From a virus (Duplodnaviria; Heunggongvirae; Uroviricota; Caudoviricetes), in IMG/VR virus record IMGVR_UViG_2529292718_000007: 49,349 bases of DNA; one strand, given 5' to 3'. The notes under the pieces were generated by a model that did no database searches, was not told the origin of the DNA, and was given only the letters and a program-made list of their open reading frames with translations. The number at the start of each line of letters is the position of its first letter. The first letter of the stretch is position 1. This document shows positions 17,165-37,898 of this stretch, one piece after another. Position numbers and translations under genes: made by a program.

Positions 17165-17781
17165 TGGCATTCAGAATGAGTGAACAATCACGTACCGTAA
17201 AAATTTATAACCTGCTGGCCGGAACTAATGAGTTTATTGGTGAAGGTGACGCATATATTCCACCTCATACAGGGCTGCCAGCTAATTCTACAGATATCGC
17301 CCCACCGGAAATTCCTGCTGGCTTTGTGGCAGTTTTTAACAGTGAAAATGAATCGTGGAATATTGTTGAAGACCATCGTGGTAAAACGGTCTATGACGTG
17401 GCGTCGGGGGACGCATTGTTTATTTCTGAACTCGGACCGCTACCAGAGAATGTCACCTGGTTGTCGCCAGCAGGGGAGTATCAGAAGTGGGACGGCGTAT
17501 CCTGGGTGAATGATGAGGAAGCAGAAAAACTGTTTCGGATACGGGAAGCGGAAGAGAAAAAGGCAAGGTTGATCCAGGAAGCAACAGATAACATCGCAAT
17601 TCTGCAGGATGCAGTTAATCTTGAAATAGCAACAAACGAGGAAAATTCACAACTGGATTCCTGGAGAAAATACAGAGTATTAGTGAGTAGAATTGACACC
17701 AGTACAGCTCCGGATATCGTATGGCCAGAGCTGATGAATCAGGGTTATGTTCGGGAGGACGAGCAGATAACTTCAGACTGA
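17164..17781 (+). CDS. Tail fibre assembly protein
   Basis: 205 aa; immediately follows fibre gene; Tfa-like N-terminus and acidic coiled C-terminus. Confidence 0.7.
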
Positions 17782-18308
17782 AATTTAGTGATGAATGTTG
17801 AATCATCAGGAATATCATGCAATACCAATGCATGAGCACCTATTGTGACATTGTTTCCTATACGCACTTTGCCACCAAGAATGGTGGCATTACAACCAAT
17901 GGTCACATTATGCCCTATAACAATATCCATATCATTAAATTCCCCGCGAAGTCCAATAGTTACTCCGGGCTTAATTGAACAATTTTCACCGATTGTTACT
18001 TTGTGACCGATAACAACACTGTTGAGATAAGAAATATCAAAGCCTTTCCCTATATTTACAGTTAAAGGGACTGTTACATTATATTTATCAAGAATGAAAC
18101 GTTCTATTTTTCCCGCAATCTTCCGACAGTATCCGCCTTTATCAAAAAGGTATTTGGCTATGCGCCACCAAAATAAATAACGAACCCTTCTATGTTTTAT
18201 TGCGCGAACAATTGCCTTTCGCCAGGAGAAAGGACGCTCGCTACCGATTACTTCATAGTGAATACAGTCTTTAAGTTCATTAATATTCATATCTTTATTA
18301 TTCAGCAT
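17745..18308 (-). CDS. Hexapeptide-repeat acetyltransferase (WcaB/CysE-like)
   Basis: 187 aa; tandem hexapeptide repeats ([21 protein letters not shown]...[14 protein letters not shown]); AT-rich; convergent with and overlapping 3' end of fibre-assembly gene. Confidence 0.75.
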
Positions 18309-18782
18309 AAGATAATCATGTGACCAATTATTGTAATAATTTTAATGGTATGTTTCTACTGGCTATCCAGCGTGTCTGATATCCAGTAACAAATCGTCAA
18401 CACGGGTGCAATCAAATGGTGAGTGTTAAGACTGACCACTTATTACCAGGTATGAGTGGCCAGCATTAAATCAGAACAGCCCTTTAACTGAACTGGCCGC
18501 GCTGTTAAGGGATGATGTCACCTTATCTTTGAAGCCGGACAGCATATTGCTGAACGATGAGTTTACCGCAGGTTTCTGGCTGGGAATCATTGACTGGAGT
18601 TAGGCCAGTAGTATGATGCTCGCAAAACGAGATCCAATTTAGATCCTTTTACTGGTGGATTATCGTTCGATCAGTGAGAGACTTCGTGCATGACCGAAAG
18701 TGTTGTGGTAGAGTTCTCTTAAAACCACGTAACGTGGTTATGATTGTGGGTGTCTGGTTGGAAAGTGACCAGATATGGAAAC

Positions 18783-18895
18783 AAAAAGCCCGCAGATAAA
18801 TCTGCGGGCTTCTTGCGACATCCACGGAAAACCAACAACTAACCATGGGCGCCTCGACAACTCCCATTATACGTTGGTTTTCCGTGGACGCAAGA
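18783..18895 (-). ncRNA. Candidate CopA-like antisense RNA opposite the repA leader
   Basis: Minus-strand hairpin GCCCGCAGA-ttta-TCTGCGGGC followed by TTTTT (about 18782-18810) and a 15 bp stem (CCACGGAAAACCAAC / GTTGGTTTTCCGTGG, 18812-18889) in the repA leader; promoter not located. Confidence 0.4.
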
Positions 18896-18903
18896 GCGAA
18901 CAT

Positions 18904-19752
18904 ATGGATAGACCAATGCCGTCTCTACGTTCAGCTTACGTTTGTAATTTGTCGCCGGAGTTCCAGCCTCCAAAGCACCATACGCACAAGCTGCCGCTGG
19001 TGTTATCTGATGCTTTACAGCGCATTAATGGGCGTGATCTTACGTGTGAGGTTGCGTTCTACGTTAATCAACCGTCAGAGCGGAAGCGCCGGATAAACGA
19101 GCATCGTCGTCGGGCGATTAATGCTGTGATCGCTGCGATTTTGCACCATGTAAACATCATTTCTAAGCGGGTTCTGGCCAGTGCTGAGGCGTTGGCTGAT
19201 TTTTGCGGCCTGTCTACCGTATCCGAAGCTGGGAACAAGTCTATAACGCGCTGTACAAGGGCGTTGTCGCAACTGAAAGCGTTAGGTTTTATTGATTATG
19301 AACGTCGCTGGGATCGGGTGAATAAACAGTATTGGCCAGCGAAAATAGAGATTCGTGATCAACTGCTGGAAACCGTTGGTATTACTGAACAAGCATGGAG
19401 ACGTGCGGTTAGCCAGAAACTTAATTACTTCAATGCGAAGAATAGCGAACGGCTTAAAAAAGCGATAACGGAGGCTGATTATAAGCGTATTGTTATTCAG
19501 GAGCAGATGGAGAATGTATGGCATCAGAGGAAGACGGCCAGAGAGATAAAGGCAAAACAGAAAGCAGCGGAGAGAGCTGCGCGTCTTGTTCGGGAAAAGG
19601 GAGAGGCCGAACTTCGTCATCAAATCACTAGAGAGGTTAGCCAGGAATTTGCTGATGGCATGTATCCTGGAGCTGACCTTGCATATTTACGATCCCTCGT
19701 TGAGCAGCGTTATAACAGGTTAAGAAAGACCTGGAAATCACTCCAACATTAA
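18904..19752 (+). CDS. repA: Plasmid replication initiator RepA (IncFII RepA1 family)
   Basis: Clear RepA1-like motifs (RRRAINAVIAAILHH, CGLSTVSEAGNKSITRCTRALSQLKALGFIDYE); track ORF begins at ATG 18775 but the leader hairpins lie inside that extension; alternative starts 18775/18916. Confidence 0.8.
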   Translation: MDRPMPSLRSAYVCNLSPEFQPPKHHTHKLPLVLSDALQRINGRDLTCEVAFYVNQPSERKRRINEHRRRAINAVIAAILHHVNIISKRVLASAEALADFCGLSTVSEAGNKSITRCTRALSQLKALGFIDYERRWDRVNKQYWPAKIEIRDQLLETVGITEQAWRRAVSQKLNYFNAKNSERLKKAITEADYKRIVIQEQMENVWHQRKTAREIKAKQKAAERAARLVREKGEAELRHQITREVSQEFADGMYPGADLAYLRSLVEQRYNRLRKTWKSLQH

Positions 19753-19759
19753 CCCACCT

Positions 19760-20250
19760 GAATGATGAATCCGGTTTTACCGGAGGATTATCTACGTCGC
19801 AATAAAATATCTGTTCAAAAAACAATCTAAATTAATTTTCTCTAAACCGGAACACAGCAAAAATATCGCCTTTACAGGCATCGGCTAATAAAGTTATCCA
19901 CAGTTTTGATATGTATATGCAAATGGTTTTTTATAATAGATGCACTAAACAAATAAATGCAAAATCACTTTCTTTTATTAAGACTTTCTTTATTTAACTT
20001 ACGCAGGCTTTGCCTGTGAATATGTTCGCCCTTGCAGCGAGCTAAAGCTCGCGCCGGTTCGAGTCGCTACGCTCAAATATACCTCCTCCGGCACTTGCCG
20101 GAGGCATGGAGCAGCCTGATCATCCTTTTCGAAACGGCGCGTTTCGAACTATACAAAATCAATTTATATAAGGCCGAAATAAGGCCTACGGCCGGGCTTT
20201 GCAGGAGGAAGGGGCGAGCCTTATCAATAAACGTCGAGAAATACGCACAC
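19760..20250. other. Putative replication origin region (oriR-like) downstream of repA
   Basis: Consensus DnaA box TTATCCACA at 19893..19901 in AT-rich DNA, followed by GC-rich segment with several hairpins/palindromes (CCTCCGGCacttGCCGGAGG, TTCGAAACGgcgcGTTTCGAA). Confidence 0.45.
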
Positions 20251-24678: not shown

Positions 24679-25431
24679 TGTGATATCTCCAGTATATGGA
24701 ACTATCACCGCCATTCGAGGCTAATCAAATGGTGGTGAGCCGTACAGGGTTAGCCTTACCGGACACAATGACGAACCGGCGCGGATTTCTCCGCCCCTGT
24801 ACGACCCACCATAATTTGGGCGTAACAGTGCTCTACGCATAAAAAAACCGCTAACGCGGTATGCGCCATCGTGTTATTCAGGAGGCTAATCCCGGCCGTA
24901 GATTTTGCTACGGCTCGGAAAGTGTCCACCAATGGCGCATTTATGTCAATACGGCGGGGTTTTAACAGAGACAACCACATAGCGTGGGTTTATTGGTAGG
25001 CAGAAACAAAAAAACCGCCCTATTGAGGACGGTTCTTTCGTGCTGATCGGATTCGCGGTCCTTTCAGCATTACGTTGTTGTATAAACAACCACGCAAGCA
25101 CAAGCAGCAAGTTAATTTTACCCAAAAGGTAATAATAGTCCACTATTATGCTTCAAAAAATTGTGGTTCTTGTTGTGCCTGCAAACTCACAGATTGTGGG
25201 TAGGTTACTGATTTTGTGAAAATAAACGAGTTTTTTCGTTTAATTTCTTTCCTATTACTAATCTTAAAATAATCGTAAAATACCTGTGGACCTTCCCGCC
25301 GATTCGCACCCGGGCACCGACTTTAGGGGAGGATTCTCCGTTGCCGTACATGCAAGCACAAGCAGCCGTGCTTGCTCTCGCGTTGTTTTCGTCGGTGGGG
25401 ATGCCGTGAAACGGCCTGTAAGGGCCATACA

Positions 25432-25554
25432 ATGAAAAAATACTGTATGTGTATTTTTATCGTTGTTACTGGGGCTTTGTTTACGCCACATGGGGAGGGT
25501 TGGAAGATTACTGATAACGCTCTGAATGTGACGATAAACATTAGCAGCAAGTAG
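25432..25554 (+). CDS. Small hydrophobic peptide (40 aa)
   Basis: MKKYCMCIFIVVTGALFTPHGEGWKITDNALNVTINISSK; followed by strong terminator. Confidence 0.3.
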   Translation: MKKYCMCIFIVVTGALFTPHGEGWKITDNALNVTINISSK

Positions 25555-25559
25555 CGATT

Positions 25560-25583
25560 AGGCCCCTTCGGGGGCCTTTTTTT
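25560..25583 (+). terminator. Rho-independent terminator
   Basis: AGGCCCCttcgGGGGCCT followed by TTTTTTT. Confidence 0.7.
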
Positions 25584-37822: not shown

Positions 37823-37898
37823 GGCCCCTTAGCTCAGTGGTTAGAGCAGGCGACTCATAATCGCACGGTCATCGGTTCAAATCCGGTAGGGGCCACCA
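37823..37898 (+). tRNA. tRNA with CAU anticodon (Met or lysidine-type Ile2)
   Basis: 76 nt cloverleaf: acceptor GGCCCCT/AGGGGCC, D-stem GCTC/GAGC, anticodon loop CTCATAA, T-arm ATCGG-TTCAAAT-CCGGT, 3' ACCA. Confidence 0.85.

Follow-up and report, generated by a model that had tools for sequence, protein, structure and literature searches.

Antisense control of repA is established in the IncFII family of plasmids (PMC12361487, PMC8053102). In plasmid R1, repA is coupled to the tap leader peptide, whose translation is blocked by the antisense RNA CopA; a second promoter is repressed by CopB (PMC12361487, PMC8053102). In IncI1 and IncB plasmids the antisense RNA also prevents formation of an activating pseudoknot (PMC8053102), and coupling to a leader peptide is the rule among the characterised relatives (PMC8053102, PMC12361487). 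A repA gene of the same superfamily is carried by IMG/VR record IMGVR_UViG_2529292718_000007, a Caudoviricetes genome of 49,349 nt that is called the window here and that amounts to an essentially complete phage-plasmid of ~49 kb. The subject of this work is the leader of that gene, in which an earlier reading made from the letters alone (the sequence-only reading) had placed an IncFII-style countertranscribed RNA. As to the kind of RNA this proposal agrees with the position in an IncFII_repA-superfamily leader, with strand-asymmetric covariation, a conserved promoter and a diversity hotspot in one loop; as to the CopA family it does not stand, as no CopA match was obtained at E<=10.

The region is read, with moderate confidence, as the copy-number control module of the phage-plasmid replicon, in which an antisense RNA would limit copy number through a switch between three leader segments termed L, R and S. 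The principle of antisense copy-number control is a known one; the RNA, which the leader most likely encodes, matches no described family and differs in architecture. It apparently represents an undescribed antisense-RNA family that is shared by two clades of phage-plasmid replicons and is not a member of CopA/CopT. The features involved are the following.

~18861 to ~18780, minus strand: predicted antisense (countertranscribed) RNA of ~80 nt, comprising a 5' tail, stem-loop 1 (SL1) and the stem-loop 2 (SL2) terminator.
18866-18893, minus strand: predicted antisense promoter, with -35 box TTGCGT (18893-18888), a 16-nt spacer and -10 box TATAAT (18871-18866).
18817-18853, minus strand: SL1 of the antisense RNA, stem GGCG.CCAUGG / CCGUGG.UGUC, loop of 13-16 nt.
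18781-18816, minus strand: SL2, predicted intrinsic terminator of the antisense RNA, GCCCGCAGA-UUUA-UCUGCGGGC and then UUUUUGUUU.
18830-18842: hypervariable segment; in the antisense RNA it is the SL1 loop, in the sense RNA it covers the internal loop and the distal part of the left arm.
18812-18894, plus strand: long hairpin of the sense repA leader, with left arm L (18812-18836), an apical hairpin (18845-18849/18863-18867, 13-nt loop 18850-18862) and right arm R (18873-18894).
18872-18886 (R) with 18903-18918 (S), plus strand: putative alternative helix R:S, with a small hairpin (18889-18898) between the arms, obtained by constrained folding with L blocked and covering both candidate ATGs.
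18916-19752, plus strand: repA coding sequence of 278 aa, with an in-frame alternative start at 18904.

Some 30 distinct leaders were collected by protein and DNA-motif searches, and these fall into two clades. In clade 1, which comprises the E. coli group, Salmonella and the loci L015, L021, L058 and L060, the leader lies directly before repA and the RepA proteins are 60-100% identical. In clade 2 the same leader stands before an extra ORF of 158-162 aa that overlaps repA by ATGA. The two clades have in common the terminator hairpin, the core GCCTCGACAACTCC[CG]ATTATA and the motif GCAAG(A)GCGAA.

The folding of both strands, proposed by the sequence-only reading as a check, is far better than that of shuffled sequences. 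The minus strand at 18775-18920 folds with -73.8 kcal/mol (z = -8.3, none of 200 shuffles being as stable), and the plus strand at 18700-18960 reaches z = -6.1 against dinucleotide shuffles. The same succession of tail, SL1 and SL2 is found in all 25 distinct variants of the ~80-nt RNA from both clades. Across 17 clade-1 sequences 98.3% of the cells of this structure are paired, with compensatory changes in five pairs; neither the paired percentage nor the covariation score was matched by any of 500 shuffles, and slid controls were only ~50% paired. When identical pairs are scored on either strand, pairing in SL1 is 96% on the antisense strand as against 68% on the sense strand, and in SL2 100% as against 87%. 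The compensatory and wobble changes in SL1 include CCAUAG/CUGUGG in S. salamae, CCAUUGG/CCGGUGG in L021 and CCAGAAU/AUUCUUGG in L058; read from the sense strand, the G-U pairs of SL1 would turn into C.A mismatches. Built from the clade-1 sequences, a covariance model scores 107 bits at the window site and 35-37 bits at every clade-2 locus, on the correct strand, and gave no match in CopA-type or PK-repBA-type leader loci.

The minus-strand GC hairpin followed by a T-run, which the sequence-only reading had marked at 18782-18810, is real. A repeat search places 16-nt arms, 94% complementary, at 18782-18815; the core at 18788-18809 is made up of GCCCGCAGA (18788-18796) and TCTGCGGGC (18801-18809), with TTTTTGTTT next on the minus strand, and on the plus strand only CTTCTTGCG is seen. 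SL2 is nearly invariant in clade 1, where one compensatory change from A-U to G-C occurs in L015, L058 and L060. The annotation holds no minus-strand genes at higher coordinates that could make use of this terminator. A simple terminator scan did not flag the hairpin, perhaps because the SL2 stem can extend into A/T tracts and thereby consume the T-run. Rfam gave weak partial matches in which the hairpin corresponds to the terminator hairpin of CsrC or of Thr_leader (the latter with 31.8 bits against a cutoff of 55); these were set aside as reflecting a generic hairpin-plus-terminator shape.

The predicted antisense promoter is the sole minus-strand sigma-70-like site that a hexamer scan finds in all 12 of the lineages tested, which span the two clades and have differing downstream genes. 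Its clade-2 version, TTGCAT-18-TATAAT, lies at the same place. Both clades keep the -10 box and the adjoining GGAGTTGTCGAGG, from which only L021 and S. salamae depart, in each case by single substitutions; the flanking stems differ. As the promoter sits inside the long hairpin, transcription would start at ~18858-18861 and end at ~18780, giving an RNA of ~80 nt that contains only half of the hairpin. In place of the ~90-110 nt named by the sequence-only reading, a shorter RNA is therefore predicted, and the stem is best assigned to the sense leader. The leader carries the general marks of a countertranscript: by consensus and conservation, a convergent promoter within a rep leader and an intrinsic terminator oriented to the minus strand, together with conserved structure specific to the antisense strand and variation concentrated in a recognition loop. 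It is very likely that antisense control exists, and quite likely that the antisense RNA starts inside the long hairpin. From these sequence comparisons we infer that the RNA is produced, where its exact 5' end lies and that it regulates negatively.

The variation is concentrated in a small segment when 13 distinct replicons of the E. coli group are compared. Pairwise diversity is 0.25 at 18830-18842, with 0-0.04 in the flanks and a mean of 0.013 over 1.16 kb, so that the SL1 loop stands ~20-fold above the replicon mean. The variants consist of substitutions and of length changes of +2, +3 and +5 nt, partly within a CAA repeat whose copy number differs between CCAACAACTAACC, CCAACAACAATCC and CCAACAACAACAATCC. 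The loop reads AACTAA in the window and AACAACAAT in ATCC 25922, and there is also a variant longer by 5 nt; in clade 2 the variable bases lie exactly at the tip of the equivalent stem-loop. In published cases a few changes in an antisense stem-loop suffice to overcome incompatibility, and in antisense-controlled replicons such clustering is a known signature of antisense/target specificity (PMC5304414). The loop probably marks incompatibility subtypes among otherwise near-identical elements, and the changes in CAA copy number suggest slipped-strand mutation as a source of new antisense specificities.

RepA itself belongs to the IncFII_repA superfamily (Pfam PF02387, E = 1.2e-43, 150 bits against a cutoff of 22.9, covering profile positions 2-272 of 275). 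It reaches the NCBIfam equivalog RepA_IncFII_LM (NF040977) with 231.8 bits against a cutoff of 70, and falls short of the classical incFII_RepA (TIGR03474, 78 bits against 446.9) and of PRK13750 (81 against 478). The closest RepA from another plasmid, within the PLSDB rows sampled, is only 36% identical. The leader was compared with the Rfam models of CopA (RF00042, gathering score 60 bits), PK-repBA (RF01089, 45) and PK-repZ (RF01087, 44). None of the three matched window positions 18400-19200 at E<=10, the whole window at the gathering threshold, or L021 and L017 at E<=0.01. As positive controls, a classical IncFII locus with annotated tap and copB-type genes (L066) scored 106.3 bits with CopA, and the PK-repBA model exceeded its gathering score in L065 and L020. 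Text searches of the literature gave no published description of the control RNA of this replicon, which is not proof of absence.

Like CopA/CopT of R1 and R100, the predicted RNA is a cis-encoded antisense RNA from the leader of an IncFII_repA-superfamily gene, consists of two stem-loops with an intrinsic terminator at its end, has a target that lies upstream of the repA ribosome-binding site and does not overlap it, shows its specificity variation concentrated in a loop, and belongs to a replicon whose origin is probably downstream of repA. The major recognition loop of CopA sits in the terminator-proximal stem-loop II. The variable loop of the RNA described here is instead in the 5' stem-loop, and its terminator stem-loop has an invariant 4-nt loop among the clade-1 variants. 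Further differences are that the antisense promoter lies inside the target hairpin so that the RNA covers half of it, that no tap-like leader peptide was found in this leader, and that RepA of the window does not reach the classical equivalog. No copB-like gene was found: the interval between repA and the cargo gene that precedes it holds no annotated gene, and the plus-strand ORFs upstream of the leader are 43 aa at most. The RNAI and Inc RNAs of IncB, IncI1, IncK and IncL/M resemble the predicted RNA in being short antisense RNAs with a 5' tail that target a leader stem-loop, in going with a RepA of the RepA_IncFII_LM equivalog, and in acting through a leader structure distant from the ribosome-binding site; they differ in that the window has neither an RF01089 or RF01087 match nor a leader peptide that could be found. 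The proposed logic is also unlike that of the pseudoknot systems, as it would consist of sequestering the start site and not of losing an activating pseudoknot. Inspection by eye for pairing between the apical or target loop and the region before the ribosome-binding site gave matches of 4-5 bp, none of them common to both clades, whereas L020 has a clear UGGCGG / CCGCCA pair.

The 15-bp leader stem that the sequence-only reading saw at 18812-18889 is borne out as a perfect 16-nt inverted repeat, TCCACGGAAAACCAAC (18821-18836) and GTTGGTTTTCCGTGGA (18873-18888), with arms 36 nt apart. It is lengthened by CTTGCG (18812-18817) pairing with CGCAAG (18889-18894), and thus extends over 18812-18894. 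Over 13 sequences 97.4% of the cells of the long sense hairpin are paired, its covariation score was reached by none of 500 shuffles, and compensatory changes affect three pairs of the long stem and one pair of the terminator hairpin. The stem is most simply a structure of the sense leader, because R lies upstream of the antisense start point and the conserved antisense promoter is inside the stem. L and the apical loop, which make up the 5' half of this hairpin, find their full complement in the predicted antisense RNA; the repA ribosome-binding site lies outside the overlap.

Against this assignment stands the view closest to the sequence-only reading, in which a longer, CopA-like antisense RNA of ~110-125 nt would start near 18895-18905, carry the whole 16-bp hairpin as well as the terminator, and engage in loop-loop kissing with the mirror hairpin of the leader. 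It is compatible with the high stability of the full minus-strand segment, with a weak promoter-like TAGAGA-17-TATGTT just upstream of the stem in the lineage of the window, and with the almost entirely Watson-Crick composition of L:R, which could therefore form on either strand. This promoter-like sequence, however, is absent from the 11 other lineages, a U-G pair in L:R of S. Concord would be an A.C mismatch on the antisense strand, and the region has no CopA match. Moreover, the G-U-dependent SL1 would lose to the stronger long hairpin if both arms were present in one RNA. The conservation of SL1 in spite of its G-U dependence argues that R is not part of the antisense RNA, and the longer RNA is accordingly judged improbable.

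How the ~80-nt antisense RNA might act on repA can be approached from the geometry of the leader. Its target (18780-18861) ends ~45 nt before the repA start region, and inhibition must therefore be indirect. In the proposed mechanism a constitutive minus-strand promoter in the upper part of the long leader hairpin would yield the antisense RNA. When this RNA is absent L would pair with R, leaving the repA start region S (18903-18918) accessible. Binding of the antisense RNA to L would free R, which would then pair with S, bury both candidate ATGs and switch off RepA synthesis. The presumption is that the amount of RepA limits initiation at the origin downstream, and the variable loop would decide which antisense RNA recognises which leader and would thereby set the specificity of incompatibility.

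The effect of duplex formation was mimicked by forcing the antisense target to be single-stranded in the folding, and the unpaired probability of positions -14 to +3 around the repA ATG was recorded. On blocking it falls from 0.60 to 0.22 in the window, from 0.56 to 0.21 in L015, from ~0.55 to 0.25 in L058 and L060, from 0.55 to 0.41 in Salmonella, and from 0.46-0.62 to 0.33-0.45 in eight of nine clade-2 leaders. The R:S duplex of the window (-20.7 kcal/mol) is better than all 870 background windows and all 500 shuffles. L:R (-21 to -38) is stronger than R:S (-14.5 to -20.7) in every case, which is what a switch requires. The start region S also resembles the left arm (AUAUGGAUAGACCAA compared with CCACGGAAAACCAAC), and in clade 2 GCCAGG...CCACAC likewise mirrors it. 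Transcription attenuation was considered and rejected, as no terminator-like structure follows R.

Refolding of this type has counterparts in Gram-positive plasmids. Replication of pT181, pIP501 and pAMbeta1 is controlled by attenuation through antisense-induced refolding, and RNAI of pSK41 is said to favour a fold in which the rep ribosome-binding site is hidden. The likeness lies in an antisense RNA that binds an upstream leader segment and so frees a sequence to form a downstream inhibitory helix; the replicon families and hosts are unrelated, and the helix proposed for the window would block initiation of translation, there being no terminator after R.

Several observations weigh against parts of this account. 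Blocking leaves the accessibility of the start site unchanged in L021 and in the clade-2 leader L031. Outside the window the R:S duplex stands out less, being among the top 2-10% of background windows for the remaining clade-1 lineages and at 5-49% for clade 2. A matrix in which R and S were swapped between lineages shows no cognate preference, and covariation therefore lends the switch no support, which leaves folding energetics as its sole basis. The lower part of L:R is not conserved in L058 and L060. The -35 box of the antisense promoter matches the consensus at only three of six positions, which is why a general promoter scan, whose criteria it fails, omits it, and the conservation of the core could instead be due to a sense-RNA loop or to a site bound by protein. 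Inhibition may also take another route, for instance through a leader ORF or through cutting of the duplex by RNase III. The refolding switch is thus put forward tentatively as the inhibitory step, with chances somewhat below even. A still broader proposal, that the RNA founds a family in which the promoter is nested in the apex of the target hairpin, repression works through a three-part switch with neither leader peptide nor pseudoknot, and a slippage-prone (CAA)n recognition loop serves as a mutational hotspot for incompatibility escape by co-infecting phage-plasmids of ~99% identity, is speculative and as a whole rather doubtful.

The sequence-only reading had correctly noted an ORF that extends RepA through the leader (18775-19752, 325 aa), which PGAP annotates as RepA and in which the PF02387 match begins at residue 52, and it had left the start between 18775, 18904 and 18916. 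Start 18775 can be discarded. Near-identical relatives carry indels of +2, +3 and +5 nt inside the extension (18775-18915), the ATG at 18775 is absent from Salmonella, L015 and L021, and PGAP calls a RepA of 277/278 aa wherever indels break the leader frame and one of 325/326 aa where the frame stays open by chance. Homologues down to 58% identity are 274-283 aa long and all begin at the residue aligned with 18916. As these homologues share that start and the extension is non-coding, the question is largely resolved in favour of 18916 as the conserved start; the annotations of 325/326 aa are systematic over-extensions, and a protein of 278 aa is supported. The ATG at 18904 is in frame in the window (+12) and in L021 (+15) and out of frame in Salmonella, L058 and L060 (17 nt) and in L015 (13 nt). 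Its use in the lineage of the window is possible and would add four residues only.

Across the lineages no ORF was found with a conserved start, frame and end near the repA ATG, so that the leader peptide considered by the sequence-only reading has no conserved candidate. Frame 0 has a TAG stop at 18909-18911, 5 nt before the repA ATG, and no start codon in the open stretch 18843-18908. An ORF at 18845-19096 (MGASTTPIIRW..., its ATG in CCATGGGCGCC) starts within the antisense target and crosses the repA start in another frame; it is 83 aa long in the window and 32-65 aa in Salmonella, L015 and L021, is absent from L058, L060 and clade 2, and is probably not a gene. As the alternative to refolding, the antisense RNA could act as in R1 or IncB/IncI, by blocking a leader ORF that begins at ATG 18845 or at the conserved ATG of ACATGGA (18904), with RepA synthesis depending on ribosomes that pass R and the start region. 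ATG 18845 does lie in the antisense target, its ORF crosses both R and the repA start in the window, Salmonella, L015 and L021, and the repA Shine-Dalgarno sequence is weak in all lineages; ATG 18904 has, by eye, AAGAG 7 nt upstream, and coupling of this kind is usual in the characterised relatives (PMC8053102, PMC12361487). The 18845 ORF, however, has no Shine-Dalgarno sequence, is missing from the lineages named above, and ends +26 to +178 nt past the repA ATG, unlike tap, repB and repY. ATG 18904 is in the repA frame in two lineages and in two different other frames elsewhere, and since the first 19 codons from it lie in near-invariant nucleotides no coding signature can be read there. Taken together this leaves a leader-ORF mechanism with only a small share of the probability, about the same as that of the longer RNA.

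That there is no regulatory antisense RNA at all, the hairpins being sense-leader structures or DNA sites (a translational operator, an operator for RepA or a repressor, or a bidirectional terminator that insulates repA), would accord with the GC hairpin forming on the plus strand too and with L:R covarying as a sense structure, but is very improbable. G-U pairs in SL1 and in the lower SL2 stem become mismatches when read on the sense strand, only the minus strand has the T-run, and both clades keep a perfect TATAAT together with a TTGC -35. The compensatory and wobble changes of arms that stand 36 nt apart speak for RNA rather than for an operator bound by protein, and a 20-fold diversity spike in one loop is hard to explain unless a self-complementary RNA pair is under diversifying selection. 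Each rival accounts less well than the ~80-nt antisense RNA for the conserved promoter, for the strand asymmetry and for the hotspot in the loop.

Two further elements of the sense leader lie upstream of the antisense RNA.

18590-18617, plus strand: candidate promoter of the repA leader transcript, TTGACT-16-TATGAT, 10/12 in a consensus scan.
18723-18739 and 18752-18774, plus strand: two extra sense-leader hairpins, beyond the 3' end of the predicted antisense RNA and upstream of the antisense terminator.

The candidate promoter has equivalents in Salmonella (TTGACT-16-TAT[GC]AT) and at the edge of the L021 extract (TGACT-16-TATCAT). Just 3' of it are two GATC sites 8 nt apart (18631-18646), and clusters of two to three GATC sites occur at the equivalent place in Salmonella, L015 and all clade-2 leaders; they may reflect Dam/SeqA-sensitive control or a protein-binding site. 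The repeat search also detected the inverted repeat AACCACGT/ACGTGGTT within 18723-18774. By eye, the structure of the second hairpin is kept in Salmonella, L015 and L021 despite wholly different sequences, and includes a U-G pair on the sense strand. Downstream of the gene, a perfect DnaA box (TTATCCACA, 19894-19902) is found in an AT-rich region ~140 nt 3' of the repA stop. This is where an IncFII-type origin would be expected, and the origin is probably downstream of repA.

The replicon of the window is 100% identical to that of E. coli plasmid p853EC2. Near-identical elements comprise ~60 Escherichia plasmids of 47-49 kb, one of them in the reference strain ATCC 25922, as well as one Klebsiella plasmid and three phages that were isolated on Yersinia pestis; the wider set of related elements also extends to Salmonella and Escherichia albertii. 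The leader is present in 71 of 5426 complete E. coli genomes and is plasmid-borne every time. A locus search of the genome contig collection returned no related loci, and two DNA-motif matches in genome contigs (L026 and L027, from unrelated metagenome-assembled genomes) were discarded as due to chance. The plasmid pSLy3, considered as a relative from the literature, belongs to the SSU5-related group and is not this element. The gene just upstream of the replicon (17745-18308, minus strand) differs among near-identical elements, being a hexapeptide-repeat transferase in the window and in E. albertii and a DNA invertase adjoining tail-fibre genes in ATCC 25922, CP099296 and Salmonella; homology to the relatives picks up again at ~18590, past this variable gene. 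Elsewhere in the window, Rfam matches at the gathering score were obtained for the C4 antisense RNA (70.8 bits) and isrK (68 bits), both on the minus strand, for ryfA (141.8 bits) and for one tRNA, at positions 24728-24914, 25286-25582 and 37823-37895. The presence of C4 and isrK suggests a P1/P7-type immunity region in the phage-plasmid.

The clade-2 loci with the extra ORF are L022 (1528-2004), L025 (1516-2004), L017, L018, L031, L032, L035, L061 and L062. This ORF is a paralogue of the N-terminal winged-helix part of RepA (30% identity over 128 aa, E = 2e-13) with a weak HTH_24 match, and may encode a coupled 'mini-RepA' or a regulator. Other relatives of the window RepA have a leader of the PK-repBA type: L020, whose RepA is 63% identical to that of the window (49.3 bits at 1863-1989), and L065, the nearest PLSDB outgroup seen, with a RepA of 36% identity (60.4 bits at 1045-1163). 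That close RepA relatives carry different leaders indicates that control modules have been exchanged or have diverged. Exchangeable control modules are known from Pseudomonas as REx-C, in which a control region with a putative antisense RNA is joined to different replication genes and incompatibility yields to a few changes in an antisense stem-loop (PMC5304414). The parallel is that the same leader precedes repA in clade 1 and the RepA-N paralogue plus repA in clade 2, and that a close RepA relative has another leader; sequences, Rep families and hosts differ, and the modularity described here is deduced from comparison only.

The predicted control RNA offers an account of how this group of phage-plasmids probably sets its copy number and incompatibility. 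The refolding switch, if true, would add a form of control that is independent of a leader peptide to the IncFII/IncL-M superfamily. RepA proteins 60-63% identical to that of the window occur with three upstream arrangements, namely this leader alone, the leader followed by the RepA-N paralogue, and a PK-repBA-type leader, and these arrangements provide a clear example of control-module exchange in enterobacterial replicons.

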